A DNA stretch of 32,000 bases from Nostocales cyanobacterium Centralia_MAG_434 (GTDB lineage: Bacteria > Cyanobacteriota > Cyanobacteriia > Cyanobacteriales > Nostocaceae), in contig JAJPJF010000396.1 of the NCBI GenBank assembly GCA_021324415.1, forward strand, positions 2,730 through 34,729, in the 5' to 3' direction. The notes beneath the pieces are model-generated. The model searched no databases. It was not told the DNA's origin and saw nothing but the letters and a program-made list of their open reading frames with translations. Of this stretch, positions 6,613-31,396 are shown piece by piece (position 1 is the stretch's first letter; the number at the start of each line of letters is the position of its first letter). A program made the translations under genes and the position numbers.

Positions 6613-7371
6613 CTAGCACCTAATCTCCTTCATCTTTCGGTTTGAACTTTTGGAAACTCGGTTGAAGATTTGTCCTGCTAATGCTGTAAATGCAGAATGA
6701 CCACGATGTCGAGGACGATCAAGGGTGATCTGTAAATTCATTGCTATTTGACCTTGTTCAATCAGTAAAACTCGATCTGCTAAAGTAACGGCTTCTTCTA
6801 CATCATGTGTAATTAACAATGCGGTAAATTGCTGTTGTTGCCAAATCTCTTCAATAAGATGCTGCATTTCAATTCGAGTCAATGCATCTAATGCACCTAA
6901 TGGCTCATCTAATAACAGTAGACGTGGTTCACTGACTAAAGCTCTCGCCAATGAAACCCTCTGACGTTGACCCCCCGATAGTACAGATGGCCAATCAAAA
7001 GCACGTTCAGATAGCCCAACTTGTTCTAATGCCCAATGTGCTTTCGGTCGCCAATTTTGTTTCAATCCTAATCCTACATTCTCTAAGACCCGCTTCCACA
7101 CTAACAGACGAGGATCTTGGAACATCACCCGTGTGTCTGGATTGAGCTTACGTAATGGCTTTCCATCGATCAAAATAGTGCCATTGTCAGGATATTCTAA
7201 TCCTGCAATTAGCCTTAATAAAGTACTTTTCCCAGAGCCACTACGTCCCACAATTGCGACAAATTCTCCTCTAGATATTTCTAAATCTAGATTCTGCAAG
7301 ACATGGATATTTCCAAAGCTTTTTCTCAGACCTATTATTTTCAGATCTACTCCCTTAGGTCCTAGTTTCAT
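6613..7371 (-). CDS. ssuB: aliphatic sulfonate ABC transporter ATP-binding protein
   Basis: 252-aa ORF with Walker [10 protein letters not shown], signature [15 protein letters not shown] and Walker B LLLLDEP. A GGAGG RBS sits 4 nt upstream. It is the last gene of the ssu cluster. Confidence 0.8.
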
Positions 7372-7455
7372 AAAACCTCCGATACGTTTGGAAACCCATA
7401 GCCTTCAGGTATGGGAGGAAAAACGAACGGGTACTTTAGTGCCCGTCTAGATATC

Positions 7456-8739
7456 TCAAAACACATAACTGTAACCGTCCTTTTTATAAATAGTGGTGCA
7501 GTATTTGTAAGATATGCCTTGCACCAATCCGTCTTTAGTTGAGATATTGAAACTGCCAGTGGCGCGGGTTGCAATTCGACCGACGTAAACACCAATTTTC
7601 TTTCCCTTGCCAACAGTGGCTTTGACAATATCACCAGTTTGAAAACCAAAGTGGAATTTTGTCCTAGCACAGTGACGATTAGGAAAGCCGTACTTATCGG
7701 TGCGGCATGATTGACGTGTTCCGTGTCCAGTTGCCTTAATGGGCAGTGGTTTGACGTGTTTGACAACAAGTGTAGGCGTGGATTTACCAACGCAAGCTGC
7801 ATCAATCCAATGCGTCTTGTCTAGACTTTGTTGGGTACGATTGAACTTGGTCAATCCGCCACTTCCCACCTCTACTTGTAACCCCGTTGCTTTCAGTATT
7901 TCCAGCAACTTGAACCGAGTAGCGTTAACTGCTGCTGTATCTGCCATTGGTTTTTTGGCTTGAGCCAATATCTTTTTGAGCAACTCAGGTTTACTTTTCA
8001 AAAATTGTTCAATAGGTTTATTCCCCTTTTTCAAATTGCACTTTTCACACGCTAAGCACAAATTGCTGATCCGGTTAGAACCACCAAGTGAACGTGGGTG
8101 TATATGCTCTATTTGCAGTGGCACATCTTTGATATTGCAATAGGCGCATTGACGGTTCCACTTTTCGAGTAAGTACTCTCGTGTTTCGTAACCAGCGAGC
8201 GTGCCTTGCTGATATTCGTTGCCACTGAACTGTGGGTTCTGCATTAATTGCGTGTCGAACTTCACCAACTCTTGGGAAATAGCGGCAATTGGTGCTAATT
8301 TGCACAATCGCTTAACCCAAGTCTCGATGTTATGGACACGACTCATTAGGCTTGGTGGCAACCATCCATTAGCCTTTGTGCGGTTGTCGAACCGTGCTGC
8401 ACGGTAACGAGTTTTGCGGTTGCGCCGACTACGACGCAATTGACGACGGGATGTCAATGATTCCCGAATAGCAAAACCTCGGTGTTGCAACTCGGCTGCC
8501 CATACTACTTCACCCGTTGCATCGTTGACCAATGCCAACCCCGTGGTTTTTGCACCTGGGTCAATCTTGACTCTTAACGGGTTAACAGGTGCGCTAGGTC
8601 GTGACTCTTTTAAAATCACTGTGAATGGAAACCGTCGGAATATCGCAGCTTTACCATTTCTCAGTAGTTGCCTTGCTTGTGCGGGATGGATTGGATCTAA
8701 CGGTCGTTTGTCTGTATCAATTACAAGTACTTTGGACAT
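7456..8739 (-). CDS. iscB: IscB RNA-guided nuclease (OMEGA system; RuvC with inserted HNH)
   Basis: 427-aa ORF. Motifs in order: PLMP-type N-terminus (RPLDPIHPAQARQLL), RuvC-I (KIDPGAKTTGLALV), Arg-rich bridge helix (RRQLRRSRRNRKTRYRAARF), RuvC-II (ISQELVKFD), HNH (CAYC..IEHIHPRSLGGSNRISNLCLACEKCNLKKGN), RuvC-III (THWIDAACVG) and a beta-rich C-terminal tail. A GAGGGG RBS lies upstream. Confidence 0.9.
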   Translation of the reverse strand: MSKVLVIDTDKRPLDPIHPAQARQLLRNGKAAIFRRFPFTVILKESRPSAPVNPLRVKIDPGAKTTGLALVNDATGEVVWAAELQHRGFAIRESLTSRRQLRRSRRNRKTRYRAARFDNRTKANGWLPPSLMSRVHNIETWVKRLCKLAPIAAISQELVKFDTQLMQNPQFSGNEYQQGTLAGYETREYLLEKWNRQCAYCNIKDVPLQIEHIHPRSLGGSNRISNLCLACEKCNLKKGNKPIEQFLKSKPELLKKILAQAKKPMADTAAVNATRFKLLEILKATGLQVEVGSGGLTKFNRTQQSLDKTHWIDAACVGKSTPTLVVKHVKPLPIKATGHGTRQSCRTDKYGFPNRHCARTKFHFGFQTGDIVKATVGKGKKIGVYVGRIATRATGSFNISTKDGLVQGISYKYCTTIYKKDGYSYVF

Positions 8740-8742
8740 TTC

Positions 8743-9062
8743 ATTTTCCCCTCAAAAATGGGCAGCCTTAATCCAAAACTGGCTAGTCTGAACACTAAAT
8801 GAATCAACCAAGAAGGCTGCCCATTTTTGTACGTGTTAGACCCAATCATATGTCCCTCCTTTCGGGTAATGTGAGCCTAGACAATGTTATTGAGCGGGAC
8901 ATCCAAACAGCACTAGCCTCAAACCCTCTAAGCTTGTTTAACCATTTGGTTGTAGAGCTACAGACTGGCATCACGTATCTGTAGGTACGAACTTAACCGC
9001 TTCTCAATAACGTAGTACCGAAGTACTTAGTCGGGTCAACTAGGGCTTACAACAACCGAGTC
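8743..9062 (-). ncRNA. candidate omega RNA scaffold of the IscB element (boundaries approximate)
   Basis: A 368-bp non-coding gap lies directly 5' of iscB on the same strand. It contains a 16-bp perfect stem (8754-8769 with 8813-8828) and a UUCG-tetraloop hairpin (9014-9027). It also has a 7-bp stem (8958-8964 with 8978-8984) and a long-range 9+3-bp helix (9003-9011 with 8886-8894). Confidence 0.6.
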
Positions 9063-9107
9063 GTTGCTGGAAGCCCACGGCTATAAGCCGTGGGTGTTGA
9101 CAAAGAA

Positions 9108-9911
9108 TTATCTCCTAAAAACTTCAGGTGAGATCCGTTGGTATGCAGGATGCCAAGAAAGCCATTTCCTTTCCAAAAATCCTGCTAATATATCAGCTAG
9201 CTTTCCCAAGGAGGCGTACAGCAAAATACTTAAAACTACGACATCAGTTTGCAGAAATTCACGGGCATTCATCGCCATGTAACCAATGCCAGAGTCAAAC
9301 GCAATAGTTTCACTAACAATAAGAGTTAACCACATAACTCCTAAAGCATAGCGTACACCAACTAGAATAGAAGGCAGAGCACTGGGAAGAATGATTTGCC
9401 AAAATAAAGACCAAGTGTTAAGTCCATAAACTTTTCCCATTTCAATTAGTTCTGGATCAACAGTTCGGATACCGTGAAAGGTGTTGATGTAAACAGGAAA
9501 TAATACACCTAAAGCAACTAAAAAAATTTTTCCCTCTTCCCCAACCCCAAACCACAAAATCACTAAGGGAATCATAGCCAAATGAGGAATATTACGCAAC
9601 ATTTGAATAGATGTGTCTAACAGGGTTTCAGCCAAAGGAATAATGCCATTAACTAACCCTAGAAGAAAGGCAATACTACCACCAATGAAAAAGCCAATCA
9701 CTGCCCGTTTAGTACTAATGCCAATGTGGTAGAATAATTCTCCAGACTTAGCAAGGCGAATTCCTGCAAGTACAACATCTACAGGTGTAGGTAATAATTT
9801 TGAGGAAATCCAGTCAAATTGAACGAGGAACTGCCAAATTATAACCAAGAGAATTGGAATAAACCAAGGAGCTAATCTATAAAAGCATTGATTAAAAGAT
9901 TTTGTCTTCAC
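9108..9911 (-). CDS. ssuC: aliphatic sulfonate ABC transporter permease
   Basis: 267-aa ORF that is polytopic and hydrophobic, with a BPD-type permease core (ETLLDTSIQMLRNIPHLAMIPLVILWFG). It sits next to ssuD and ssuA. Confidence 0.8.
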   Translation of the reverse strand: MKTKSFNQCFYRLAPWFIPILLVIIWQFLVQFDWISSKLLPTPVDVVLAGIRLAKSGELFYHIGISTKRAVIGFFIGGSIAFLLGLVNGIIPLAETLLDTSIQMLRNIPHLAMIPLVILWFGVGEEGKIFLVALGVLFPVYINTFHGIRTVDPELIEMGKVYGLNTWSLFWQIILPSALPSILVGVRYALGVMWLTLIVSETIAFDSGIGYMAMNAREFLQTDVVVLSILLYASLGKLADILAGFLERKWLSWHPAYQRISPEVFRR

Positions 9912-9950
9912 AGTAACAACATTTATAAATTATTAATTGTTAATGAACTG

Positions 9951-11078
9951 TTACTTAGGAAAGTTTTCAAAACCAATAAGTTCGCCAACAGGGCTAACCA
10001 TTTCAGTTTTATCTATGTTATTGATTTTCTGGATTGGCAAGCGAGGAAATAGTAATTCAGCAACTCGATAAGCTTCTTCTAAATGAGGATAACCGGAAAG
10101 AATAAATATATCAATTCCTAGAGCGGCATACTCTAGCATTCTGGCAACGACAGTATCAGGATCTCCTACCAAAGCTGTACCTGCACCACCTCGAACTAAC
10201 CCAACTCCTGCCCATAAATTTGGACTGATCTCCAGTACTTCTCGACTACCATTGTGTAGCTGTGTCATACGTTGTTGTCCTTGAGAGTCCATCCTGTCAA
10301 AAATTTTTCGGGCATTGGTGATCGCCTCATCGTCAACAAATTTAATCAATTGGTTAGCCGCCTCCCAAGCTTCAGTTGCAGTTTCTCGAACTATGATATG
10401 CAAGCGAATACCAAAACGGATAGTTCTACCTTGTTGTGCAGCTAATTCTTGGACAGACTTGATTTTTTCAGCTACATTTTGTGGTGTTTCTCCCCAAGTC
10501 AAATAAATATCGGCATGCTTGGCAGCAATCTGTTTTGCAATAGATGATGAACCACCAAACCATATAGGAAAGCGGGGAGATTGCACGGGAAGAAATAGTA
10601 GTCTACCTCCTTTGATGTGTAAATGATTACCACTAAAGTTAGTTTCATGACCAGATAAAATTTCTTTCCAAACGGTTAAAAACTCATCGGTTAATTCATA
10701 ACGTTGATCATGAGACAGATGCACTCCATCCCCTGCTAACTCCACGGGATCACCACCAGTGACAACGTGAGTTTGTAAACGTCCATTAGACAAACGATCA
10801 AACGTAGACGCCATTCTAGCAGCTACACCTGGAGACATCAATCCAGGACGAATCGCAACTAAAAAATACATTTTGCGTGTTATTGATATCAGGGATGAAG
10901 CCAAAATCCATGCATCTTCACAAGAACGTCCAGTGGGTAACAAAGCCCCGGAAAAACCTAAATTATCTACAGCAAGTGCAAGTTGTTGAAAATAACAAAA
11001 GTTGCATTCACGTCCACCAAATGATGTGGCTAAATATCGACCATCTCCATGTGTTGGAATAAACCAAAGTAATTCCAT
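9951..11078 (-). CDS. ssuD: FMNH2-dependent alkanesulfonate monooxygenase
   Basis: 375-aa ORF with long colinear similarity to E. coli SsuD as I recall it (WFIPTHGDGRYL; SCEDAW; ISPNLWAGVGLVRGGAGTALVGDPDTV; LSGYPHLEEAYRVAELLFP). Confidence 0.88.
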   Translation of the reverse strand: MELLWFIPTHGDGRYLATSFGGRECNFCYFQQLALAVDNLGFSGALLPTGRSCEDAWILASSLISITRKMYFLVAIRPGLMSPGVAARMASTFDRLSNGRLQTHVVTGGDPVELAGDGVHLSHDQRYELTDEFLTVWKEILSGHETNFSGNHLHIKGGRLLFLPVQSPRFPIWFGGSSSIAKQIAAKHADIYLTWGETPQNVAEKIKSVQELAAQQGRTIRFGIRLHIIVRETATEAWEAANQLIKFVDDEAITNARKIFDRMDSQGQQRMTQLHNGSREVLEISPNLWAGVGLVRGGAGTALVGDPDTVVARMLEYAALGIDIFILSGYPHLEEAYRVAELLFPRLPIQKINNIDKTEMVSPVGELIGFENFPK

Positions 11079-11158: not shown

Positions 11159-12196
11159 TTACGATTTAGGTTGCCAAACAGCATCTGCTACTTTTACGGG
11201 TTTAGGAAGCATCTTAAGACGTAAAAAAGTATCAGCAACTTTTTGTTGTTCTGCAATAATTTGAGGGCTGATTGATTGGACATCGTAACGTTTCCTCCTA
11301 CTCTCAGCAAGCTCTAATGAAGGAGCATCAATTCCTAGCTGAGATGATAAAATATCAACAACTTCATGATGATTTTTTTTTGCCCAATTTCCTACTTCAT
11401 TAGTTGTTTTGAGAATTTGCTTGATAATTTCTGGATTTGTATCAGCATAGTGTTTTGATGTCACAAAAAATTCTCTCCATGATGCTATACCCTTACCATC
11501 TCTTAAAATTCGTGCTCCTCCATGTCGTTGAGCTGCAGCTAGGAATGGGTCCCAAATTCCCCAAGCATCTATGTTGCCCTGTTGAAATGCCGCACGAGCA
11601 TCGGCTGGGGAAAGATAGACAGGTTGAATGTCGCTATATTGCATTCCCGCAGACGCCAACGCTTGCGTCACCATAAAATGAGCACTTGAACCTTTCGTCA
11701 CACCAACTTTTTTACCTTTGAGGTCAGCCATAGTCCGAATGGGAGAATCGTTGCGGACTAAAATAGCCAAACCTTCTGGACTTGCTGAAGAATTACCAAC
11801 ATATACCAATGGCACACCAGCGGACTGAGCAAATACTGGTGGAGCCTCTCCCACAGATGCAAAGTCAATGCTGTTTGCATTTAAAGCTTCTAACATAGGA
11901 GGACCCGATGGAAATTCTAACCATTTGACAGTCACTCCAGAAGAGGAAAGCTGTTTTTCTAAACTGCCTTGATGCTTAACCAGTGCTAAGACTGCAGATT
12001 TCTGATAGCCTATGTTTACTACTTTAGGCGCTTGAACATTTCTAGAAGTGCAACCAGCAAATCCTAAACTTAGACATAAGCCTAGAGTAAATAGCAGTGT
12101 AAAAACTTTAGCTGAGTTTTGTTTCAGTAAGCTGAAGGATTGCCGGAAACAGCTTGTTAGCAACAACAGAGGCTTAAAAAGAACGTGAAAGTTCAT
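11159..12196 (-). CDS. ssuA: sulfonate ABC transporter substrate-binding lipoprotein
   Basis: 345-aa ORF with a signal peptide and lipobox (LGFAGC). It has an NMT1/SsuA-type binding fold (IGYQKSAVLALVK; GKKVGVTKGSSAHF). It is the first gene of the cluster. Confidence 0.78.
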   Translation of the reverse strand: MNFHVLFKPLLLLTSCFRQSFSLLKQNSAKVFTLLFTLGLCLSLGFAGCTSRNVQAPKVVNIGYQKSAVLALVKHQGSLEKQLSSSGVTVKWLEFPSGPPMLEALNANSIDFASVGEAPPVFAQSAGVPLVYVGNSSASPEGLAILVRNDSPIRTMADLKGKKVGVTKGSSAHFMVTQALASAGMQYSDIQPVYLSPADARAAFQQGNIDAWGIWDPFLAAAQRHGGARILRDGKGIASWREFFVTSKHYADTNPEIIKQILKTTNEVGNWAKKNHHEVVDILSSQLGIDAPSLELAESRRKRYDVQSISPQIIAEQQKVADTFLRLKMLPKPVKVADAVWQPKS

Positions 12197-12460
12197 GGCT
12201 TAACACCAAACCCTGAATAACTTAAGGTAGTTGCGTTGCAAGAGTGAAATTCTCGTTTGCCAGTTTATTATCTCAGAATTCTTTGTCTATTTTAGATTTC
12301 GGATTACAGATTATAGTTATCTTGAGACAATTGGACTTTGCTGAATCAAAATAGAATTTATAGTTTCAAAAGTCGGTGACATGATTTAGAATGGCTCATC
12401 ACTTGTACAAAAATCAGAAATCAGCATGAATTCTGGCTCCTGAATTCTTTCCTGTTAAAG

Positions 12461-12490
12461 CCGAAAAAGACCCTACAAAAAGGTCTTTTA
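12461..12490 (-). terminator. intrinsic terminator (minus strand) after the 12537..12749 gene
   Basis: aaagacc (12466-12472) pairs with ggtcttt (12482-12488). A T-run follows on the minus strand. Confidence 0.55.
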
Positions 12491-12536
12491 CCATCAAAAG
12501 GCTCTTATCACCGACTCCTTACAGGCCAGGCAGAGA

Positions 12537-12749
12537 TTAATCAAACTTAAGTGGTGGCGGTGGTTCTAATCCTTGGGCTTTCAAAAAATCTAATAACTGG
12601 ACTGTTCTACAAACTATGTCCCCAGGTTTTCTTCGGTTGTTGAAGTATCTCCTGACTGTATTCTCCTCAACTCCTAAAGCTTCAGATGCAGCAGCCTGGG
12701 TTGGATAGTTTTTTGATAGCATTTGTTTGACATACTCTTCTCTTGTCAT
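12537..12749 (-). CDS. small HTH protein
   Basis: 70-aa ORF. TQAAASEALGVEENTVRRYFNNRR is HTH-like. It is the last gene of the 15014->12537 minus-strand block. Confidence 0.5.
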   Translation of the reverse strand: MTREEYVKQMLSKNYPTQAAASEALGVEENTVRRYFNNRRKPGDIVCRTVQLLDFLKAQGLEPPPPLKFD

Positions 12750-12795
12750 AAAATTTCTTCTGCTACAGCTATAGTCCTCAGCGATCGCCTCCGCT

Positions 12796-13047
12796 TCACG
12801 CTGCTTGCGTTCTTGCCGCTTGTAATTGTTGTTCGCGCAGAATCTTTAGCTTGATGGACACTGAGGGAAAACTATTCAGATTCAAAGCTGGTAAATGTAT
12901 AACTTCTAACACTTGGGTTGTGACTCGAACTTTACCAATGCGAAGGAAAACAGTTTCGCCTAAGCGTGGGACAACTTGCACATAAGCTTGGATAGTCTCT
13001 TGTCCTGACACATTTGGTCGTGTGATATCAAAAGTTACTGGAATCAT
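12796..13047 (-). CDS. hypothetical protein
   Basis: 83-aa ORF, co-oriented with the block. No recognisable motif. Confidence 0.4.
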   Translation of the reverse strand: MIPVTFDITRPNVSGQETIQAYVQVVPRLGETVFLRIGKVRVTTQVLEVIHLPALNLNSFPSVSIKLKILREQQLQAARTQAA

Positions 13048-13075
13048 TTGTTGCCTCTACTTGGTTACAAAAAAA

Positions 13076-13110
13076 GGGAGCAGGGGGCAGGAAGCAGGAA
13101 GCAGGGAATA
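13076..13110. repeat. STRR-like heptamer tandem repeat (GGRRGCA x5)
   Basis: gggagca gggggca ggaagca ggaagca gggaata, in the intergenic gap between two minus-strand genes. Confidence 0.7.
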
Positions 13111-13127
13111 AAAAACTTTATCCCACA

Positions 13128-13640
13128 CTATAGGCATGTGGGTTCCCCTGCTCTCTGCTCCCTCTGAGATTGCAATCTAAATTGAATGCTGTGAATCATT
13201 TCGACCCAATCAGCATCTTTGTTCCATTCCCTGCGAAATCTGATTTTGGTTACTGCGTCGTAGAGCCTACAGAAAACCACGTTTTCTTCCCCAGGAGTGG
13301 CAGCGATAATTAGGGGCTTAGAAAAATCTTGAACTTGTGATACTGCCAGTAAAAATGTCTTGGCGAAGTTGGTTTCTATCCCGGTTCTAATAACATAAAG
13401 TTCGTCAGCCGAGACAACAATATCTAACTTAACGTTATCCTTCCCCTTAAATTCTTTCGTCGTCAATCGTAGTTGAGTTAGATAACCAGTTAATCCTTTC
13501 TGCTGTACAGGAATAGTTTTGTCGTTGTTAACATCGTAGCGATACCAGACATAGGGCTCACCGTTAAACTCGCCTTGATTGACGTAAAGATAAACAGGAT
13601 CAGGAGGATTGCACAAACCCAATTTAATTTCAGCAAGCAT
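13128..13640 (-). CDS. hypothetical protein
   Basis: 170-aa ORF. Its start overlaps the stop of the upstream gene (TAATG), which implies translational coupling. Confidence 0.55.
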   Translation of the reverse strand: MLAEIKLGLCNPPDPVYLYVNQGEFNGEPYVWYRYDVNNDKTIPVQQKGLTGYLTQLRLTTKEFKGKDNVKLDIVVSADELYVIRTGIETNFAKTFLLAVSQVQDFSKPLIIAATPGEENVVFCRLYDAVTKIRFRREWNKDADWVEMIHSIQFRLQSQREQRAGEPTCL

Positions 13641-13903
13641 TAAGGTTCCTCCGATTCATCTGGTGTGTCTGCAACTGTTCTTTGGACTTTCGCTTTATTT
13701 ATCTGAAACTCCGAAGCCTTAAGCACAGGCATTGCTGCATTTTTCACTGATGCTTTTGCTTGGTGGTAGAGGAATTGAACGACTCCGTCTGGATCTTCTT
13801 CTTCATCTACTTGTGCCCAGAGTGAGCAACCCAAATCAAGTGATTCGTACTGACCAAGATTGAATTTTCGACTGTAGGATATTGACACAGTTGTAATTTT
13901 CAT
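13640..13903 (-). CDS. hypothetical protein (acidic C-terminus)
   Basis: 87-aa ORF. It is translationally coupled to the downstream 170-aa ORF and lies 9 nt after the upstream ORF. Confidence 0.5.
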   Translation of the reverse strand: MKITTVSISYSRKFNLGQYESLDLGCSLWAQVDEEEDPDGVVQFLYHQAKASVKNAAMPVLKASEFQINKAKVQRTVADTPDESEEP

Positions 13904-13912
13904 TCACTACTC

Positions 13913-14125
13913 CTAATCTGATATTTCAACACTGAGTTGGGAGCATAAATCAGCAGCTTTAACACCAAAAACTCCTGGTTCAATTTCAGTTACTAATTTG
14001 TCCACTAGGGATTGAAACCCAGGATGACTATCGTTAATCTGCACCTCAGTCAAACCTGCAACATTCGAGACAACAATTGCCCAATTAGGTAATGTTTGAG
14101 GATTTTGTGTGGTGTAGAACTGCAT
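13913..14125 (-). CDS. hypothetical protein
   Basis: 70-aa ORF tightly packed with the following genes. A GGAG RBS lies upstream. Confidence 0.45.
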   Translation of the reverse strand: MQFYTTQNPQTLPNWAIVVSNVAGLTEVQINDSHPGFQSLVDKLVTEIEPGVFGVKAADLCSQLSVEISD

Positions 14126-14230
14126 TGTTACAACTCCGTTTTGGTATCAACATCTTAGTAGCCAGTTATTGCCCTTTTTATGAGTGAGCAATCGCTTGAA
14201 TGTTGACGCAACAAGAGTTAAATTTCTTCC

Positions 14231-14318
14231 GTATTTCTTCAGGTAAACTGGTATATTTAAACCAGAAAATATTGTAACTAGTCCACAGGGTGAGCATTTT
14301 GCTCACCTTCTTTTTCTA
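14231..14318 (+). ncRNA. candidate ~85-nt antisense sRNA
   Basis: A sigma70-like promoter reads TTGAAT (14196-14201), 17-bp spacer, TAAATT (14219-14224). There is an internal hairpin, ctggt/accag. The terminator is an 8-bp stem ggtgagca/tgctcacc (14289-14307) followed by ttctttttct. No plus-strand ORF is present. Confidence 0.3.
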
Positions 14319-15014
14319 CTAGGCAGCAAGTAACACTACAGTTTTGCAGAGCGGCTGATACTCCAAAAGTTGCTCCCATTCCTGAGTAGTCAATTGGTCA
14401 AACGGCTGGTCTAACAACTCTTCGTTGTGATCAGCACAGCATGAAGTTTCCACCATCCACAAAGACCACACAGCATCAGATGCAGAATCGCAGGGCACTT
14501 GGTTTTGATACTGGGATGAGGCGCGTACAACCCACCAGTTGCCATCAGTGCAACCAACTTGACCCAGTTTCACGTCGTTGTGGTAGATACCATCGTCCGT
14601 CAGTTCAAATCCGAACTCGTCACACGCTGCTGCAATTTGTGCCATGACTTCGTTACCAGTGGTTGCAGGTGCTTGTGTATCTACTTGCTGCTGTTGTACT
14701 GGCAATGTCCCTTGGGTGTAGTGCCATGTGATATAGCTATGGCACTTCGCCCAACTGTCAGCACGATGGATTTCCTCATCGTTGATCATTACCACCCAAC
14801 GCTGAGTCACAAAGTCATCGTCGTCATGGGTGATGCTGGCTATGAGTTTGTCGCCAGCGTAGATTTGGTGGTCGTAGAAGCTGATTTCAACTACTGTGAG
14901 TTCTTCTGGAGCTACGACTTCTGCTTGTGCTTCGAGGTAATTCTCTAGTTCGGCTTGGGCAACCGCTTGCTCATTAAGTGAGGGAGCTTGCTGTGCGTAA
15001 GCTAGGTGCGTCAT
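14319..15014 (-). CDS. acidic hypothetical protein, first gene of the minus-strand block
   Basis: 231-aa ORF rich in D, E and Q (DDDDFV; EELLDQPFDQLTTQEWEQLLEYQ). No family recognised. Confidence 0.55.
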   Translation of the reverse strand: MTHLAYAQQAPSLNEQAVAQAELENYLEAQAEVVAPEELTVVEISFYDHQIYAGDKLIASITHDDDDFVTQRWVVMINDEEIHRADSWAKCHSYITWHYTQGTLPVQQQQVDTQAPATTGNEVMAQIAAACDEFGFELTDDGIYHNDVKLGQVGCTDGNWWVVRASSQYQNQVPCDSASDAVWSLWMVETSCCADHNEELLDQPFDQLTTQEWEQLLEYQPLCKTVVLLAA

Positions 15015-15126
15015 AATGATATCTCTAAATCTGATAAAAAATTAGATTTTGACGAAAGGCGATTACTTTGCTTACCAGGCTGGGGTGATCGCCTTTTGTC
15101 TAACCTTACAATCTAATGTTAATATC

Positions 15127-15159
15127 TGTTATCCCACTTGTCAACATTTTGGGATAACA
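15127..15159. promoter_or_regulatory. operator-like inverted repeat tgttatccca-N13-tgggataaca in a divergent promoter region
   Basis: 10-bp perfect arms at 15127-15136 and 15150-15159. Further copies of the motif lie at 15185-15193 and 15584-15593. Confidence 0.5.
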
Positions 15160-15237
15160 AAAAAATACTACTTGTATGTACACTTGTTATCCCTAGGTTT
15201 TTATTGATAGCTTTAAAAAAACCACGAGGAAATTGCT

Positions 15238-15450
15238 ATGGCTGAATCAAGGCTAAACATTAGGATTTCACCAGAAAAGAAAGACGCTTTTTATCAAAAG
15301 GTTAAATACGAAGGGAAAAACGCCACTGACGTACTCATAGACTTGATTGACCAGTATCTTGGTAACAAAGTTGAGTCAGGCGAGATTTTAGAACTCAGAC
15401 AGCGAGTTGAAAAATTGGAAGAGGTGGTGCTGGGGGAAACAGCCGCCTGA
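15238..15450 (+). CDS. ribbon-helix-helix (CopG/Arc-like) protein
   Basis: 70-aa ORF. The N-terminal beta strand plus two helices read RLNIRISPEKKDAFYQKVKYEGKNATDVLIDLIDQYL. A GAGGA RBS lies upstream. Confidence 0.7.
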   Translation: MAESRLNIRISPEKKDAFYQKVKYEGKNATDVLIDLIDQYLGNKVESGEILELRQRVEKLEEVVLGETAA

Positions 15451-15509
15451 GAGAAGAGAATGAATCTCTCAGGCAATTACTAGAAAAACTCAAAGAAATG
15501 CTCAAGGAA

Positions 15510-15545
15510 AAACCCGCCAATTATTAGGCGGGTTTGCTGCTTTAA
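15510..15545 (+). terminator. intrinsic terminator
   Basis: aaacccgcc (15510-15518) pairs with ggcgggttt (15527-15535) around an 8-nt loop. A T-containing tail follows. Confidence 0.6.
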
Positions 15546-15805
15546 ATGGGTTGTATTTTTTGTGATAAAACTGTGCTACCATTTGGGATAACAAGCATGG
15601 TTCGTAAATGAGTTAACCACATGGAGGTGATGCATCCCTACTATTTGTGATAGCAAATGGCTACAAGCAGTAAAGAGGGGGTATAGGTAGTTTTTCTAAA
15701 CCTCTTAATTATGTTTTGTGCTTTCTAAAATGGGAAAAAACTAAATCCCAAGAGCGCTTGCCTCGAAAACATCGCTCCTGGGAAGTCTCACAAACTACAA
15801 AGTTC

Positions 15806-17428
15806 ATGTTCAATCAAACAATACCAAATTCTCTTGCACCATGCATAGAGGATAGTGCTGTTATTGACCCCTACAATTCCCAAACAACTTCAACAGTTGA
15901 TTTTGCCAACCTTAACAGTAGTATTCAAGAAACCTTCACTGCCATTGATAGATTTGAATGGCAGGTGTCGGAAGAATTGCGATTGATGCGAGATAATCGC
16001 TATTACAAAGATGCGGGTTATACCTGTTTTGAAGACTACTGTGAAAACGAGTTGAGCAAATATGGAGGATACCGCAGGGTCAGAGATTTACTTGCAGCCA
16101 AGAAAGTGGTTGATGCCCTTCCCGAAAATCTTAAGGAAAGGATTACCAAACCTGCCCAAACACGTCCGCTTCTGCGGTTGGTCAAAAATCCAGACAAGTT
16201 GCATGAGGCTGTGGCGATCGCAGTCCAAGAAAAACCTTTTCCCACTGCTGCCGATTTCGCCAAAGCAGTTCAACAAGTTATGCCGAGCGATAAAAGTACC
16301 CTAAAAAAGGAGAAAAGTCAAACGCAATTGTGTCAATCGGTCAGGATTTCATCACAATCACACTCCAGATATGGGGAAGAGGGAGTGATTGAAACAGACC
16401 CACCAAATCATTGGCAGCAGCTTGTCACTTTAACAGACGGCGAGAAACTACTAGTTAACAATGCGGATTTAGATGGTCTAAGTGTTCCTTGTCCCAAAGA
16501 ACGGCCTTACCCAGCAGAATATGCTGAAGCGATTGCTGCCATTGAAGAACGCCATAAACAGGAACTAGAGCGACTAGAACAAGACTTAAGAATTGGGCTA
16601 CAAGCAGAAGCAACAGCCAGGGCAGAACAACAAATAAAAGAACAGGTGGAATCACTACAAAAGTTGTTGAGGCAGCAGAAAGAGCAAAACATTCACCTGC
16701 AGCAACGGCTGGATGAGATGGAGGGGCTAAGGCAGCTGGAATTTGAAAACCAACAACTTAAGCAGCGTATTTTGGAACTAGAACATGCAGTAGAACAACG
16801 TCCTCAACAGCAGTGGGAGGATACTTTCACGAAAGGGGCGACTAAAGCACTAAACAAGCAGCTAAAGCTTGCATTGGAAAGGACAATTGATTTGCGCTCG
16901 TTGGCAGTTGAACCCCCAAAAGAAAATGCACAGGAATGTTTGCTGCTAATGGGGATGGCATTGAAGAATCTTGCCAGTGCCATGAATAACACCCAGGCAC
17001 TTCAAGCAGCAGCAATTATCCTGGGGAGTGAGCCGACACCGCAGGCGATCGCATATAGAGCCGAGCAATTGCAACTACTACCGCAAGCAGTTAGTGATAT
17101 TCGGTGTGTGCTGGCCAAGTCTGAGTGCACTTGGCAGGACTATTGGAGTGTGGCTCAAAACTACGAGCTAATTAAACAAGACTATCTGGCAGAGTTAACA
17201 CCGCAACAGATACAGCTAATTGATGCCTTAGAGAAAGCCAATTCACAACAAAAAACGATGGGAGATGGTTCCATAGTAGCCCATGCTGACCCCTATAGCG
17301 CTTTGTATAAGGCGAGGGGGGAGGTTATTCAAGACCTGGGTGATGAAGTCCAAGTAGCTTGGGAACATTGGAAAGACCAACCCAAAAAATCAGACCGATA
17401 TTTTAAGGATGAGTTGCGACTGTTGTAA
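15806..17428 (+). CDS. large coiled-coil protein, possible plasmid replication or maintenance factor
   Basis: Track ORF 15716..17428 begins with TTG, so I trimmed it to the first ATG (MFNQTIPN). The N-terminal domain reads RYYKDAGYTCFEDYCENELSKYGGYRRVRDLLAAKKV. The central region is Q/E/L-rich coiled coil. Confidence 0.6.
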   Translation: MFNQTIPNSLAPCIEDSAVIDPYNSQTTSTVDFANLNSSIQETFTAIDRFEWQVSEELRLMRDNRYYKDAGYTCFEDYCENELSKYGGYRRVRDLLAAKKVVDALPENLKERITKPAQTRPLLRLVKNPDKLHEAVAIAVQEKPFPTAADFAKAVQQVMPSDKSTLKKEKSQTQLCQSVRISSQSHSRYGEEGVIETDPPNHWQQLVTLTDGEKLLVNNADLDGLSVPCPKERPYPAEYAEAIAAIEERHKQELERLEQDLRIGLQAEATARAEQQIKEQVESLQKLLRQQKEQNIHLQQRLDEMEGLRQLEFENQQLKQRILELEHAVEQRPQQQWEDTFTKGATKALNKQLKLALERTIDLRSLAVEPPKENAQECLLLMGMALKNLASAMNNTQALQAAAIILGSEPTPQAIAYRAEQLQLLPQAVSDIRCVLAKSECTWQDYWSVAQNYELIKQDYLAELTPQQIQLIDALEKANSQQKTMGDGSIVAHADPYSALYKARGEVIQDLGDEVQVAWEHWKDQPKKSDRYFKDELRLL

Positions 17429-17541
17429 CTCAAGCAGGTTCAGTTTTTTCAACACACAAACATGAATATCCGCAAAACAACAAAACCCGCGCTCGCTGTG
17501 GGTGAAATTGCCGTGCGCCAACAAAAACAGGAGGTTGTAAG

Positions 17542-18735
17542 ATGACTGCTACTATGACTCGTCCCATTGCCAAGAAATCTGCTGCTGCCAGTAAACCACA
17601 ATCCCCATATAAAAGACTTCATGTGATTATTCCAATAAAAGATATGCTTTGGGCGCAAGAGCAAAAACATTCAGTGACACAATTGTGGCAAGAATGTTGG
17701 ACGGCGGACCCCTACGGTTCTCGGTGGATGCCTTTATCTACGGCGCTGAGCTACAGCACGTTTATGTGTGCCAAGAAAGTTCTTGCCCAAAGCGGGTTAT
17801 TCATTTTCAAACCAGACAAGTCGATACAAGACGGGCGAGAAACTGTTGGCTGGATGGTGCGTAATCTTCACGGTAGCCGGATGAAAGATTTTTGGGAGGA
17901 AGTAGATTCTGCATCACCAAAACCAGATGTAGAAAAACAACAATCTTCTTCTCAAAATCTAGAATCAAATGCTGAGAATACGGGGATAGATGCTGGCACT
18001 AAAGAAATAGATTATTTGTACAAAGCGTCTATTTCAGGTGAAACTCCCGAACTGCAAGGATTCGGTGCACCCTCACGAACTGCTCAGGAACACCTCACAA
18101 ACTCTTCAAAAGAGTTTGTGAGGTGTTCTTGTTCCACGCCAAACGAAAATTCGCGTGTGGAGGAGACGGCGATTGCGCCCCCCTTGGGCGCATCGCCTCC
18201 AGTAATGTATTGCGTGGAACAGAAGGAAGAACAGCCACCTGTGGTGGCAGACTGCACATCGCTAACGCTCGTGGATGTTGTACAGGGTCAATCTGCTTTG
18301 TTAGAGGGAGAAAACCAGAATTTGGGTGTGGAGCCGGAAGTCTCTGATGAGGACACTTATTCCGCCGCGCCCGTTGCCCAAAATGAAAAATCTTCAACTG
18401 AAGCGAGTCATTCCTCTGCTGTATTGATGGCTGAAAACTCGGTTTCTCTTGGAGAAAGCAACGCATCTTGTGAGGACGAAGGTTCCGCGTCGCCTGTTCT
18501 CGATGCTGAAAAATGGTCAGAAGAAGCGATTTTTGCCAGGTTAAAATCACGTCCTAGAAGACTGCAAAGGCTCAAAACTGCTCAAGTTCTTGCAGAAAAC
18601 CCAGGTTTTGAATACCTGCAAGAATGCTGGAATGACGACCCTGCCTTACAGATAGTCATCAAGAAGCTGCTGGCGAAGTTTCCGCAGTGGGGGATTGCTT
18701 GTGTGGAGGGACAGTTGGTTAAGTGGAATGGCTAG
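17542..18735 (+). CDS. hypothetical protein, possible replication initiator (winged-helix-like N-terminus)
   Basis: 397-aa ORF with a strong RBS (caggagg, 8 nt upstream). The motif QECWxxDP occurs near both termini (LWQECWTADPYG and LQECWNDDPALQ). The centre is acidic, S-rich and low-complexity. Confidence 0.6.
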   Translation: MTATMTRPIAKKSAAASKPQSPYKRLHVIIPIKDMLWAQEQKHSVTQLWQECWTADPYGSRWMPLSTALSYSTFMCAKKVLAQSGLFIFKPDKSIQDGRETVGWMVRNLHGSRMKDFWEEVDSASPKPDVEKQQSSSQNLESNAENTGIDAGTKEIDYLYKASISGETPELQGFGAPSRTAQEHLTNSSKEFVRCSCSTPNENSRVEETAIAPPLGASPPVMYCVEQKEEQPPVVADCTSLTLVDVVQGQSALLEGENQNLGVEPEVSDEDTYSAAPVAQNEKSSTEASHSSAVLMAENSVSLGESNASCEDEGSASPVLDAEKWSEEAIFARLKSRPRRLQRLKTAQVLAENPGFEYLQECWNDDPALQIVIKKLLAKFPQWGIACVEGQLVKWNG

Positions 18736-18955
18736 CTTGAGTATTACGCCGTCAATAGAGTTGGGTAAACGTCCAGCCTTGACACTTGCCTCGTCCTTGA
18801 AGGGTTTCGGGTTCGGTTCCGAATTACCTCCTTTTATCCCTGCTTCAACTGTTTGATAACTAGTCTCAGGGCTGGGGGATACGCTGTCACCGCTGCACCT
18901 GCGGGATAGGACTTGGCTTGTTGCCTCACCTATATGATTGTACTATATTGATACT

Positions 18956-19525
18956 TCATTGGAGTTCTTGTAATCTTTGATTCGCTTCATCTATGTCGAA
19001 AATATTTGGGTTAAAGGTTTCACCTACCCATTCAATCCTCTCTTCATATTCTGGGTGCGATGGGTCAGTAATAATTTCAAGTAACTCTGCATAGCCCCAA
19101 GAACCTCCACAATCTTCAGGAGGACAAGCACGCTTCCCAGTAATGCATACAGGGTAGTTTGTATCTGGAGAATATGGTAGTTCTTTTTCGACTAAAATTT
19201 CGTGTTCCCAGCTATCTCCAAAATCGTAAGTGTAGAAGAATTTGGACTTTTCACTGTTAACCACCTGACGAAGAATGACACTTTTTTCCGAACGGACATT
19301 AAAGTCATATTCTGGTTGAGATTGACCGTAATCAATACCAGCAATGGTCCATGAATGCATATGATAATTATCCCAGCCCATTGCCGCTTGCACAATCAGA
19401 TGTAGCTGTTGAAGCGTTGTCGAACTTAATACCTGTATCCTTCTCCAAATAGGGGGTCGAATGTCCCTAAGGGTGATTTTCAGTTGGTAAACGGTTTGAT
19501 TGCTTGTGGATTTTTTCGTTGCCAT
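18956..19525 (-). CDS. plasmid pRiA4b ORF-3 family protein (PF07929-like)
   Basis: 189-aa ORF. The N-terminus shows the hallmark YQLKITLRDIRPPIWRRIQV...LHLIVQAAMGWDNYHMHSW, followed by YTYDFGDSWEHEI. Confidence 0.85.
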   Translation of the reverse strand: MATKKSTSNQTVYQLKITLRDIRPPIWRRIQVLSSTTLQQLHLIVQAAMGWDNYHMHSWTIAGIDYGQSQPEYDFNVRSEKSVILRQVVNSEKSKFFYTYDFGDSWEHEILVEKELPYSPDTNYPVCITGKRACPPEDCGGSWGYAELLEIITDPSHPEYEERIEWVGETFNPNIFDIDEANQRLQELQ

Positions 19526-20138
19526 AGTTGCTTGCTCAATATTAGTATCCCAATTGCATTAATCTGATTCCAGATAGGAGTGATCAATTTTGGTAGATTT
19601 TCGCACCTCGACCCTAAATTCTTGATTTAGGTACACCCAGCATGAAGGAATGAGGTGCCACCAACACATTCTCGTTGTGGCACTCTCAGTTGGGGTCTTT
19701 TTATGCTTTCTACTGTACTATATAAACTAGTACAGTAGTACATCCGAACTATGAAAAAGCAATCCGCCTTTAGCGTTGGGCAGAAAGTCTACTCATATCT
19801 TGCACCTCTAAGTATAGACCCTGATATCTTAAAAAGATGCGCAATAAAGCTACTTCAATTTTATGGGCTTTTATCGGTAAATCAAGGGTTTTGCTTTCTT
19901 ACTGAGTAATAAAATTACATCAATTTTTCTTGGTGCAAGATATGAGTCTACGTTAGTGACCCCAGAATGCCCCAATATGGCAGACGGGTGACAATTCGCG
20001 GTTTTTTAGATGGACGCAGTTTGGGCATGTTTTTGATTTGCAGAGATGATCGGGGAAATGAATTGCTGCTGCAACTAGAGGAGATTTCTGCTATCTTACC
20101 CCAATCAATCAGAATGTAGCCAAAGTTAGCATACAGGT

Positions 20139-20654
20139 TCAAATCTCTTCCATATCTTTTGGTTTCACCTCATACAGAGTTGAGGCTACAGAAAGATGGC
20201 GATGTTTCCCCGTACCTTTTAAAGTAAAATCTGCTATAAAACGTTTAATATTCGCAAAATATTTCTTTTTCCGCATAATTAGTTCGGATATGAGTTGTTT
20301 TGTCTCTTCTTGCGCTTGTGGATCTCCAAGCAGAATTCTTCCTATGAACTGATCAACCATCTTTTGTTGCTTTGTTTCAGGAAGTAGGGATATATTCCAA
20401 GCAAACACAGCCAACTCATATAAACTTCTGTGCGCTTCTATATTGTGTACGGTATCGATATAAGGGTCAATGAACTCTTCCAAGACTTCTGACATTTTTT
20501 CAGCTCCTGGTGGTTCAATAACTATCTCTACTGCGGAAGAGCCAAGTGCACCTTTTTTGACTTTCTGTGCTAATTCATTTAAGTGTTTTTGGTTATCTTT
20601 TGATTGTTTTTGCTGTTTGAGTAATTCTTGAAACTCCTTGGATTGTTTGGGCAT
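20139..20654 (-). CDS. hypothetical protein
   Basis: 171-aa ORF with a basic N-terminus followed by EKMSEVLEEFIDPYID...AVFAWNISLLPE. I recall seeing this pattern in cyanobacterial hypotheticals, but cannot name a family. Confidence 0.55.
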   Translation of the reverse strand: MPKQSKEFQELLKQQKQSKDNQKHLNELAQKVKKGALGSSAVEIVIEPPGAEKMSEVLEEFIDPYIDTVHNIEAHRSLYELAVFAWNISLLPETKQQKMVDQFIGRILLGDPQAQEETKQLISELIMRKKKYFANIKRFIADFTLKGTGKHRHLSVASTLYEVKPKDMEEI

Positions 20655-20874
20655 AATGCAGTAGCCTTCTTGTTTTGTGCCAAATGCTAGTTCGATGGTT
20701 TCAATTAGCTTAACGCATTTCCAGTATAGGTTTTTCGTGTGTAATTCTTTTTACTAGTTGTCGACTTTTATAGAAGTTGCCTTGGAGCATGGCTGAACTG
20801 GAGTATTAAGGCAGTCGCTACAATAGGAGCGATGCCTGTGGCGGGCTATGCCTACGCACTAATATTATATTTAT

Positions 20875-21111: not shown

Positions 21112-21113
21112 GG

Positions 21114-23415: not shown

Positions 23416-23426
23416 AAGGGCAGTTC

Positions 23427-25452: not shown

Positions 25453-25526
25453 CCGTAAAATGGAAGGGGACGAGCGAAACCCCGTTCGACGGGTGCGGCT
25501 GGGTAGTTCATTCTAGATATAAATAT

Positions 25527-29428: not shown

Positions 29429-30577
29429 CTAGGGACTGGGCTCAGCATTTTCGTTCAATACTGCTTCAATTTCTGTGAGTTTTTGACGCAAAATTTCTTG
29501 AAGCTCCATGAGCTGAGTTTTGTCAGCTTTCTTCAACGTCTCTACGGACAGCTTTTGTAGACGCTTAGCCTCTGTTGCTAACGGCTTAGTTGTCGTACTA
29601 GAGGTTGATGATAACTGGGAGTGTTGTCCTACAATTTCATTGACTAATTTCCGGGTAGCATTAGCAGATAATTTTTCATTCATTACCTTCTGTGTCGTAT
29701 TTACCCTAATGGATTGTGCTTCTTCTTCAATGACTCCTAGATTTTTAGCTGAAAGTTTTTGGAGTGCGCTCGCATGAACGCCCTTTAATCCACTCCTGAT
29801 TGCTGTTTTTAGGTCTTGTGGTAGTGACAACATTGGAAAAATGTTAGCTTCAATCGAAGCAGGATTGAGCTGCAAATCTAGTAAGAATGCCAATACTACT
29901 TTTTCTGAATCACTTATCCCCAAATCGTCTAAACCTTGCTGTTGTGCTTGAGCGTTAGCTGTTATAAGTTCTACAACAGAATTCATCCGCTTGTGTGCGT
30001 TTAATCTTCGCACTACTGTAGAGAGAATGCGGGGAATATCTTGAGATTCTAGATCAGTATTGCTGACTATTTCTCGAACAATAGCCTCTGCTTTATCGAG
30101 GGGATTGAGGTCTTCACGGTGCAGAGAGGTTAGTAATGCTTTACGGTGTAAAGTTTCTGGTTCTTGAATAATGACAGCTTGGAGATTCTGCCAACCTAGA
30201 CTTTTGGCACTACGCCAACGCCGCTCGCCATCAAATATAACTAACTTTTCTCTCTGTACAAGAATAATTGGCTCCAGTTGTCCATCTCTTGACAAAGAAC
30301 GAGCCATGGATTCAATACTTTCTGGCAAAAATGTCTGCCTGGGTTGTTCTGGATTTGGCTCAATTTGTTCCATGGGAATGGACAAGATACCTGTTTGTGA
30401 TTGGATCTGCTCGCGTAGCGTGCTAAGATGCGCCTCCAAATCAGCTGAACCTTGAGAACGAAGTGCTTCAATTTCTGCCCTTAATCGCTGTATCTCTTTT
30501 TCAGCTTCAGATAGCTGCTGGGATTGCTTGGCTGGTGAAAAAAAATTGTTAATATCAGGGGTTTTTCGAGCGCACAT
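29429..30577 (-). CDS. parB: ParB/Spo0J-family partition protein
   Basis: 382-aa ORF with a ParB N-terminal domain (IEPNPEQPRQTF...GQLEPIILV...FDGERRWRSAKSLG). It lies 3 nt downstream of parA. Confidence 0.85.
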   Translation of the reverse strand: MCARKTPDINNFFSPAKQSQQLSEAEKEIQRLRAEIEALRSQGSADLEAHLSTLREQIQSQTGILSIPMEQIEPNPEQPRQTFLPESIESMARSLSRDGQLEPIILVQREKLVIFDGERRWRSAKSLGWQNLQAVIIQEPETLHRKALLTSLHREDLNPLDKAEAIVREIVSNTDLESQDIPRILSTVVRRLNAHKRMNSVVELITANAQAQQQGLDDLGISDSEKVVLAFLLDLQLNPASIEANIFPMLSLPQDLKTAIRSGLKGVHASALQKLSAKNLGVIEEEAQSIRVNTTQKVMNEKLSANATRKLVNEIVGQHSQLSSTSSTTTKPLATEAKRLQKLSVETLKKADKTQLMELQEILRQKLTEIEAVLNENAEPSP

Positions 30578-30580
30578 ATA

Positions 30581-31396
30581 TTATTTTTTCTTCTTGGTTT
30601 TATTAGCTGGCTTTCCAATTAAATTTATTAATTCAGAAGTAATTGCTTTAAAATCACCACGTGCAGGATGACTAGGGCGGTAGAGATGTATTGGCAATCC
30701 TTGACCACTGGCATTAACAAATTCGGCACTGTCTCGAATTTCGGGAAACGCACGAAGATTTATCTGCTTTAACTGTTCTGGTAATGCCGCCAATATCTGC
30801 CGATGAGTTCCCCGTTGAGAATTATATTGGTTGGGAACAAACCCCATAATTTCTGGAGATGGGTTTAAGCGTAAATGCTTGCAATGGTAGTAGTACCACT
30901 CTATTAAATGAGCAGCACCCTGAATAGATTTTGGTTCCAACTGCACGGGAATAATAACATGAGTGCAAGCAGCTAGAGCCATCAAAGGCAAAGGTCCAAG
31001 AGTTGCTGGGCAGTCAAAGATAATGAGCTCCTGTTTGAGTGGATAGTCAGTCAAGCAGTCTCCCAGAAGGTAGGCTCCGCGTTTATGGAGCACTAATTCA
31101 TCTGCCGTCTGGGTGAGGACCATTCCCCCTTGACAGAGGACTACCTTATCAGTGTGTTTGCTCCAGCAAGGAGTTAGGGGCCAAGAACCATCAAAATTAT
31201 CTTTGAGCACAGCAGCTAGTGTTTCTTCCGGCTCTGGCGGTTGCAATCCACAAAAAAGGGTCAACGACCCTTGTGGATCAAGATCAAAAAGCGCTACCTC
31301 GTACTTGTGAAGTGCCAATTCATATGCCAAGTGCACTGATAGTGTTGTTTTTCCACTTCCTCCAGCATTGCTAATTACAGCTAGTCGAACTTGCAT
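30581..31396 (-). CDS. parA: ParA-family partition ATPase
   Basis: 271-aa ORF with a deviant Walker A (VISNAGGSGKTTLSVHLA), the DLDPQGS motif and Walker B (IIFDCP). Confidence 0.88.
   Translation of the reverse strand: MQVRLAVISNAGGSGKTTLSVHLAYELALHKYEVALFDLDPQGSLTLFCGLQPPEPEETLAAVLKDNFDGSWPLTPCWSKHTDKVVLCQGGMVLTQTADELVLHKRGAYLLGDCLTDYPLKQELIIFDCPATLGPLPLMALAACTHVIIPVQLEPKSIQGAAHLIEWYYYHCKHLRLNPSPEIMGFVPNQYNSQRGTHRQILAALPEQLKQINLRAFPEIRDSAEFVNASGQGLPIHLYRPSHPARGDFKAITSELINLIGKPANKTKKKK

Follow-up and report, generated by a model that had tools for sequence, protein, structure and literature searches.

The 32,000-nt window analyzed here (the whole stretch of DNA; Nostocales cyanobacterium Centralia_MAG_434, assembly GCA_021324415.1, contig JAJPJF010000396.1, positions 2,730 to 34,729) contains a sulfonate utilization operon in the order ssuA-ssuD-ssuC-insert-ssuB, in which ssuC and ssuB are both intact and the inserted element is oriented as the operon. 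From its sequence, the insert at the ssuC/ssuB junction is very probably a non-autonomous ISC-type transposon of the IS200/IS605 superfamily, 1,730 bp in length, that carries an omega RNA of the HEARO family and an intact iscB gene encoding an RNA-guided nuclease. The host is a filamentous cyanobacterium of the Nostocales. A preliminary description of this DNA had singled out positions 7372-9107, which correspond closely to the transposon (7372-9101) together with 6 nt of spacer from the host. The element is made up as follows:

7372..9101, minus strand: whole ISC transposon (IS200/IS605 superfamily), 1,730 bp, without terminal inverted repeats and without a target-site duplication
7372..7455, minus strand: transposon end 3' of iscB (left end in TnpA orientation), with two subterminal hairpins at ~7385-7425 and 7427-7446 (DNA fold z-score -2.9), conserved in the family
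7456..8739, minus strand: iscB, 427 amino acids (aa), defined by the open reading frame (ORF) and profile matches
8740..8849, minus strand: secondary insertion of 110 bp that separates the omega RNA from the iscB ATG; ATG is duplicated at its two borders
8850..9101, minus strand: omega RNA scaffold (HEARO), with an Rfam match at 9101..8866 and family conservation continuing to the original Shine-Dalgarno sequence GGAGGGAC at ~8850
9076..9101, minus strand: transposon end on the omega-RNA side (right end in TnpA orientation), GTCAAC followed by the hairpin CCCACGGC/GCCGTGGG (z-score -3.9)

The product of iscB has a length that is normal for the family and matches Pfam RRXRR over residues 4-179 (3e-72, 242 bits; motif RPLDP at 12-16) as well as the HNH and HNH_5 models at residues 198-249 (Pfam HNH 3e-11, 46 bits). 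It scores 460.7 bits against NCBIfam NF040563 guided_IscB, the equivalog for “RNA-guided endonuclease IscB”, which is 2.6-fold the cutoff of 175, and its best sequence matches among solved structures are all IscB (TbaIscB 6e-37, OgeuIscB 8e-25), followed by IsrB and small Cas9s. The domains run from a PLMP-type N-terminus through RuvC-I (D60), an Arg-rich bridge helix, RuvC-II (E157), HNH and RuvC-III (H310, D313) to a beta-rich C-terminal domain; the insertion of HNH between RuvC-II and RuvC-III identifies the protein as IscB, as distinct from IsrB. The preliminary description had proposed this identity and domain order, and up to RuvC-III the profile searches and the alignment to OgeuIscB and TbaIscB agree with it.

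All of the motifs quoted in that description were found: KIDPG (D60), SQELV (E157), IEHIHP (H212), CEKCN (C231/C234/N235) and HWIDAA (H310/D313). When aligned to OgeuIscB and TbaIscB, D60 falls on IDPG, E157 on LE, and H310/D313 on DHYLDA of OgeuIscB, and the HNH histidine, asparagine and CxxC pairs are matched (C198/C201, H212, N226/N235 and C231/C234 in the window protein). In alignments of 30 and 50 relatives, E157, D313, H212, N235, C198/C201 and C231/C234 are invariant and D60 and H310 are at least 90% conserved, which bears out the earlier statement that the catalytic motifs are intact. The same alignments show invariant R98, R102, R105, R106, R111, R113 and R116 in the bridge helix (residues 98-116, RRQLRRSRRNRKTRYRAAR), for which an AlphaFold model predicts a helix at 98-106. 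In comparisons with six relatives, codon positions 1, 2 and 3 show identities of 0.73-0.76, 0.87-0.88 and 0.41-0.48, respectively (summary values 0.75/0.88/0.43), a pattern that indicates purifying selection on the IscB protein.

Upstream of iscB, on the same strand, lies a non-coding leader of 368 bp (8740..9107). A leader of ~370 bp had been described before, and it does hold the omega RNA; however, ~110 bp of it is a hairpin-repeat insertion rather than omega RNA. The Rfam HEARO family (RF02033), now recognized as the omega RNA of IscB (Meers et al., bioRxiv 10.1101/2023.03.14.532601), matches positions 9101..8866 over its complete model (1-211 of 211) with 121.7 bits, compared with a gathering score of 83 (E 6e-25). 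Full-length HEARO was likewise found in all 11 relatives tested, where it ends ~17 nt before their ATG. Folding of 36 omega RNAs of the family with RNAalifold predicted 38 pairs, of which 26 show compensatory double changes.

The host genes that flank the element, and those upstream of ssuC, are:

6613..7371, minus strand: ssuB, ABC ATPase, host gene 3' of the element (Pfam ABC_tran; N-terminus aligned to orthologues)
9108..9911, minus strand: ssuC, sulfonate ABC permease, host gene 5' of the element (Pfam BPD_transp_1; homologues named SsuC)
9951..11078, upstream of ssuC: luciferase-like monooxygenase gene (ssuD in operon order)
11159..12196, upstream of ssuC: substrate-binding protein gene (ssuA in operon order)

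Both boundaries of the transposon can be read from family alignments. On the 5' side, homology starts sharply at GTCAAC, GTCAGC or GTAAGC, corresponding to window position 9101, and sequence further upstream is unrelated between loci. On the 3' side, homology stops at GGAGG-N4-9-(A/G)TGA; the window reads cGGAGGttttATGA, where the ATG is the start codon of ssuB and the terminal GGAGG (7376-7380) lies within the element end, 4 nt before that ATG. Hairpins are subterminal at both ends (as single-stranded DNA folds), and there are no terminal inverted repeats.

The boundaries were also placed by comparison with empty sites. Uninterrupted ssuC-ssuB with the same neighboring genes occurs in three relatives (related loci are given L numbers): L162, on a 185-kb metagenome contig (SsuC 87% identical), L163-L165 (85%) and L166, Mastigocladopsis repens (82%). 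These were reached via SsuC homologues; a scan of the metagenome collection with the SsuB protein was swamped by the ABC motif DEPLGALD (best 62% identical). When the window flanks are joined in silico (...TTAGGAGATAATTCTTT and ATGAAACTAGG, compared with ...TTAGGAGATGATTC-CTATGAAACCAAG in L162), they are colinear and gapless with the L162, L163 and L166 junctions apart from one extra T in the window spacer. Since the joined flanks match empty orthologous junctions, the insert comprises 7372..9101 and sits at N/ATGA without target duplication. The orthologous empty sites read ...CT ATGAAA, and at the L162 junction ssuC and ssuB were called as overlapping by 4 bp. The predicted empty junction, taken as an exact 24-nt string, had no match in the metagenome collection. 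Among family members, T is the commonest base before the 5' GT (23 of 45), and the actual 5' end may lie one base farther outward.

One of the related loci (L058) encodes, at 9622-10770 on the minus strand, an HNH-less RRXRR protein of 382 aa that is IsrB-like. The 3' end of this IsrB element (9650-9732) is 81% identical over 83 bp to the end of the window element and also finishes at an ATGA that is the start codon, here of a phosphotransferase (APH) gene. This shared end fits the published sharing of ends and transposases by ISC and IS605 elements (PMC4810608).

The guide of the omega RNA and the target-adjacent motif (TAM), which the preliminary description had left as unknown, can both be inferred from the mapped boundaries as a guide of ~16 nt and a TAM of ATGA(A):

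9102..9117 (9117-9102), minus strand: predicted guide, 16 nt, UAGGAGAUAAUUCUUU, made up of the last ssuC codons, the TAA stop and the 6-nt spacer
7367..7371, minus strand: ATGA(A), predicted as the TAM and as the target of the transposase; it lies 5' of the left end and reads TTCAT on the plus strand, and its ATG is the ssuB start codon

In characterized systems, the IscB guide is found immediately 5' of the scaffold of the omega RNA, beyond the transposon's right end; IscB elements show a preference for the orientation of the upstream gene; and IscB of Geobacillus stearothermophilus (GstIscB) has an experimentally determined TAM of TTCAT and a role in homing (Meers et al., bioRxiv 10.1101/2023.03.14.532601). 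An N/ATGA target and a 5'-GT(CA) terminus were described in 2016 for cyanobacterial ISC families (PMC4810608). Of 71 3' ends of the present family, 58 finish at ATGA and 13 at GTGA, and 39 of them have A in the following position; these ends were called by hand, with some subjectivity, as automatic calling from BLAST support was unsuccessful for ~40% of loci. Within the window, the sole exact match to the guide UAGGAGAUAAUUCUUU is its own site.

Because the guide lies outside the element, it must come from transcription of host DNA, and here the ssuC transcript would supply it. In model bacteria, ssu operons are switched on by sulfate starvation. Read-through from the ssu promoter would thus yield an omega RNA whose 5' guide consists of ~16 nt of the end of ssuC plus the spacer. 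The complex of IscB and omega RNA would then recognize the predicted target TAGGAGATAATTCTTT when ATGA(A) comes next. Guide match and TAM would occur together only at an element-free ssuC-ssuB junction, either after excision by TnpA or on element-free copies of the genome, and the occupied site would be immune, as GTCAAC stands in place of the TAM. Cutting of the empty junction would allow homologous recombination from an occupied genome copy to restore the element. Transposition itself would require a Y1 transposase acting in trans, from an autonomous IS605 element elsewhere in the genome. Within this overall reading, the analysis itself shows what the protein and the RNA are, where exactly the element begins and ends (by family alignments and the empty sites of orthologues), that the catalytic residues are conserved, and that the family is under purifying selection and has RNA covariation; we infer from characterized relatives the read-through omega RNA with its external guide, recognition by guide plus TAM, and the supply of TnpA in trans.

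The window copy differs from its relatives by the 110-bp insertion that separates the omega RNA from iscB. This insert contains a perfect 17-bp inverted repeat (arms 8813-8829 and 8753-8769) flanked by A and T runs, and its RNA fold has a predicted energy of -33 kcal/mol. It brings GAGGGG, a new Shine-Dalgarno sequence located 8 nt from the iscB ATG on its 5' side, and the old Shine-Dalgarno sequence and ATG now open a 42-codon ORF (8849..8721). The insert is missing at the same position in 14 aligned relatives and in the two closest ones, L167 and L168 (89% and 84% identical). A search for other copies in L001-L081 found none; copies do appear in L167 and L168. Hairpins 84-85% identical to the insert lie 3' of iscB in both, and a further copy, 81% identical, lies inside the L168 iscB reading frame (L167 4335-4407; L168 4443-4515 and 4146-4222). 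IscB of L168 is 463 aa in length compared with 427 aa in the window, which is consistent with an in-frame repeat insertion. To judge from these copies, the insert belongs to a small family of hairpin repeats of ~77-110 bp and looks like a mobile repeat that tolerates or prefers ISC elements. In L004, L012, L016, L045, L049, L055, L059, L061, L064 and L072, iscB matches span 1,311-1,368 nt compared with the usual ~1,275-1,284, and these reading frames, lengthened by ~30-90 nt, may hold further in-frame insertions of small repeats.

Several observations weigh against the interpretation of the insert as an ISC transposon with a functional, externally guided IscB. The guide length of 16 nt is an assumption from characterized IscBs, and the extra T at the junction (window TTCTTT, 9102-9107, compared with TTC-CT in L162, L163 and L166) makes the 5' boundary uncertain by 1 nt. 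Two points concern the TAM-interacting domain: the family profile aligns to solved IscBs up to ~residue 346-350, such that the last ~80 residues are unaligned by sequence, and the AlphaFold model, built from a shallow alignment (at least 74% identity), is of poor quality (mean pLDDT 58.6). This poor model has a five-strand beta domain at 371-418 (pLDDT ~70-76), and the top 9 Foldseek matches obtained with it are all IscB or IsrB complexes, with low TM-scores (8csz_D 6.8e-14, TM 0.36, 494 columns). A scan for promoters and terminators gave no signal of either kind above chance, with no such promoter-like site inside the element, so that all expression rests on ssu read-through, and the 110-bp insert may end transcription before iscB, lower IscB expression or set the 3' end of the omega RNA. 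Lastly, no Y1 transposase (Y1_Tnp) or TnpB was detected in the 32 kb covered by a six-frame scan and by Pfam scans of the larger ORFs.

This last result agrees with the preliminary description, which had reported no TnpA in the window. The lack of TnpA in cis makes the copy non-autonomous and does not thereby exclude it from the ISC family; it is the rule for iscB, as tnpA is the neighbor of ~1.5% of iscB genes (Meers et al., bioRxiv 10.1101/2023.03.14.532601). Among 79 related loci with 6-kb flanks, a full TnpA was found only in L043 and a fragment in L021, a rarity that agrees with the published figure. In L043 (Scytonema sp. PCC 10023), an autonomous-looking IS605 with divergent tnpB (OrfB_IS605) and tnpA (9590-10132; Y1_Tnp, 137 bits) is located at 8486-10135, 1.2-2.9 kb downstream of the IscB element, and is a candidate source of transposase in trans for the family.

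We considered whether this copy could instead be an inactive relic, stranded without a transposase and with iscB uncoupled from the omega RNA by the hairpin insert, a passenger that has simply not decayed so far. That the 110-bp insert falls, in this copy alone, precisely where the omega RNA gives way to the iscB ATG would fit such a history, as would a window devoid of TnpA and TnpB and an element with no internal promoter above chance. Nevertheless, the ORF is full-length with all catalytic residues, the omega RNA matches the whole Rfam model and both transposon ends are intact. Moreover, the insert's own GAGGGG is a good Shine-Dalgarno sequence at 8 nt before the ATG, and a missing neighboring TnpA is normal for active IscB elements. 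We therefore regard a relic as unlikely, although it is the most probable of the alternatives. The idea that the host has recruited IscB, perhaps to regulate or guard the ssu operon or the plasmid in an RNA-guided manner, instead of its being part of a selfish transposon, seems very improbable. It could draw on the fixed position in the operon, identical in two metagenome assemblies, on the intact state of ssuB and ssuC, and on the Shine-Dalgarno sequence that the element end gives to ssuB; yet the three closest ssu operons have no element, relatives at 70-89% identity occupy many unrelated sites with the same ends, the catalytic residues are retained, unlike in known domesticated, nuclease-dead TnpB derivatives, and the guide is simply flanking sequence, as for any ISC insertion. 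Thus, where the copy had been described as “non-autonomous or domesticated”, the first term holds, whereas the second finds no support in view of the intact ends, the empty orthologous sites and the relatives at unrelated sites.

A stand-alone endonuclease of the HNH/McrA type or of the group-II-intron type, not guided by RNA, can be given almost no weight. Many relatives are named “5-methylcytosine-specific restriction endonuclease McrA” by JGI, and HNH Pfam models do match the protein. However, RRXRR/RuvC scores 242 bits against 46 for HNH, the IscB equivalog cutoff is passed 2.6-fold, the RuvC D, E and H/D motifs align to solved IscBs, a covarying HEARO lies directly upstream, and no reverse transcriptase or intron RNA family was matched. 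The HNH-only or McrA assignment was thus rejected on the basis of Pfam RRXRR, HEARO, the IscB structure alignment and the NCBIfam IscB equivalog, and a non-autonomous ISC transposon with an intact iscB is the reading that we retain.

The family to which the transposon belongs is widespread. A search of one genome per species returned 282 relatives, of which the best 79 loci are 70-78% identical at the protein level, and at E <= 1e-20 at least 8,000 relatives were counted in a large protein collection, many of them named “RNA-guided endonuclease IscB” by NCBI; close relatives in Nostocales number in the thousands. The 79 loci are nearly all from heterocystous or other filamentous cyanobacteria (such as Scytonema, Brasilonema, Fischerella, Calothrix and Nostoc), and several genomes have multiple copies at unrelated sites. 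The exact same IscB protein is already present in public assemblies in the same context, its position agreeing between two metagenome assemblies. In L024, from a cyanobacterial genome assembled from a metagenome, the IscB element is followed ~2 kb downstream by a CRISPR array (9294-10841; 22 repeats, Rfam CRISPR-DR5), probably by coincidence.

Insertions of this family show a pattern at operon junctions. In 37 of 70 related elements, the ATG or GTG (RTG) at the terminus begins a host ORF of 100 aa or more, compared with 17% of other same-strand RTGA sites in the flanks, and many of the downstream ORFs have textbook N-termini (MKALVTGANGFTGSHLV, MKILVVEDD, MNILAVIPARY, MSLDLQLSGKTAIVTGGSAGIG); the TAM is thus often the start codon of a host gene. 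At the other end, 22 of 44 loci have a co-oriented ORF, again of 100 aa or more, that terminates between -45 and +75 nt of the element 5' end, and the stop of the upstream ORF is sometimes inside the first bases of the element (for example GTAA, offset +1 in L021, L049 and L071), which points to insertion at ATGA stop/start overlaps inside operons. A GGAGG-like motif is found 4-9 nt upstream of the terminal RTG, inside the element end; a Shine-Dalgarno-like core precedes 57 of the 71 terminal RTGs, including 34 of the 37 with a long downstream ORF compared with 23 of the 34 without one. The figures for the start-codon pattern rest on hand-called ends and a crude null model.

One possible explanation, which we put forward tentatively and consider less probable than its negation, is that this Nostocales ISC family is adapted to “park” at ATGA start/stop overlaps in operons, with the start codon of a host gene serving as both TAM and transposase target. 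The element 3' end would supply the GGAGG Shine-Dalgarno sequence 4-9 nt before the host start, and the 5' end (GTAA, or an early stop in GTCAAC) would re-terminate the upstream gene. If true, parking would keep both host genes translatable and guarantee read-through transcription for the external guide. The same pattern could equally reflect survivorship, in which only operon-internal, transcribed, non-disruptive sites persist, and GGAGG could be kept for reasons of transposase or hairpin function. The start-codon pattern is not mentioned in the ISC literature examined (PMC4810608 has 0 occurrences of “start codon”); the original 2009 HEARO description lay outside this check.

The window probably derives from a large plasmid. 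It encodes ParA (30581..31396) and a ParB-like protein (29429..30577), the latter 67-71% identical over 99% of its length to ParB of Nostocales plasmids of 100-540 kb. Parts of the 12-32 kb region (12200-32000) match Nostoc and Calothrix plasmids of 100-540 kb at 72-86%, a pRiA4b ORF-3 family gene is found at 18956-19525, and many ORFs of the window have no family match. The “plasmid-like replicon” of the preliminary description is plausible in view of the ParA/ParB pair and the resemblance of the 12-32 kb region to large Nostocales plasmids. The ssu/IscB region has no megablast match in the PLSDB plasmid collection; plasmid similarity is confined to the right-hand 20 kb, and a collection of plasmids cannot exclude chromosomal relatives.

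IscB with its omega RNA, the usual absence of TnpA nearby, the N/ATGA target and the homing role are all published already, the NCBI annotation pipeline assigns the family its name automatically, and a specialist would not be surprised by this copy. What it offers is a clean worked example: thanks to the empty sites in orthologous operons, both boundaries, the guide and the TAM follow from sequence. Its IscB, compact at 427 aa and with ATGA(A) as the predicted TAM, is a candidate for screening as an editor, and the copy illustrates how elements inside operons use a host start codon as the TAM. Should the operon-junction pattern prove adaptive, it would inform how RNA-guided transposons limit harm and yet secure transcription of their guides.

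Overall, the window element resembles several described systems. Its RNA is like HEARO RF02033 in its full-length match over the gathering score, its expected position and strand and the covariation in the family, and differs in having a longer variable hairpin near model positions 30-45 and in the placement of the scaffold 110 bases further from the ORF. ISC1-1_MA of Microcystis and ISC2-1_MS of Marinobacter (Kapitonov, Makarova & Koonin 2016; PMC4810608) are similarly IscB-only, non-autonomous elements of ~1.3-1.7 kb. With the ISC elements at N/ATGA of that study, the window element shares 5'-GT(CA), subterminal hairpins, insertion 5' of ATGA without target duplication, and ends in common with IS605/IsrB; it differs in host lineage (Nostocales), sequence family and the extra 110-bp hairpin repeat. 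OgeuIscB (PDB 7utn, 7xht, 8csz) and TbaIscB (PDB 9k30), which are among the top Foldseek matches, have the same order from PLMP to RuvC-III and aligned catalytic motifs. OgeuIscB has 496 aa compared with 427 aa in the window IscB, which is shorter after the bridge helix and 17-22% identical to the OgeuIscB entries in Foldseek, and the same TAM as in these two proteins is not expected. GstIscB of the ISGst element from G. stearothermophilus (bioRxiv 10.1101/2023.03.14.532601) belongs to another phylum, and activity was demonstrated for GstIscB whereas it is predicted for the window IscB. The two systems are alike in the omega RNA upstream of iscB at the right end, the external guide and the co-orientation. 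The TTCAT TAM of GstIscB, whose role is to cut the empty donor joint, reads ATGAA on the iscB strand and agrees with the ATGA(A) predicted here.

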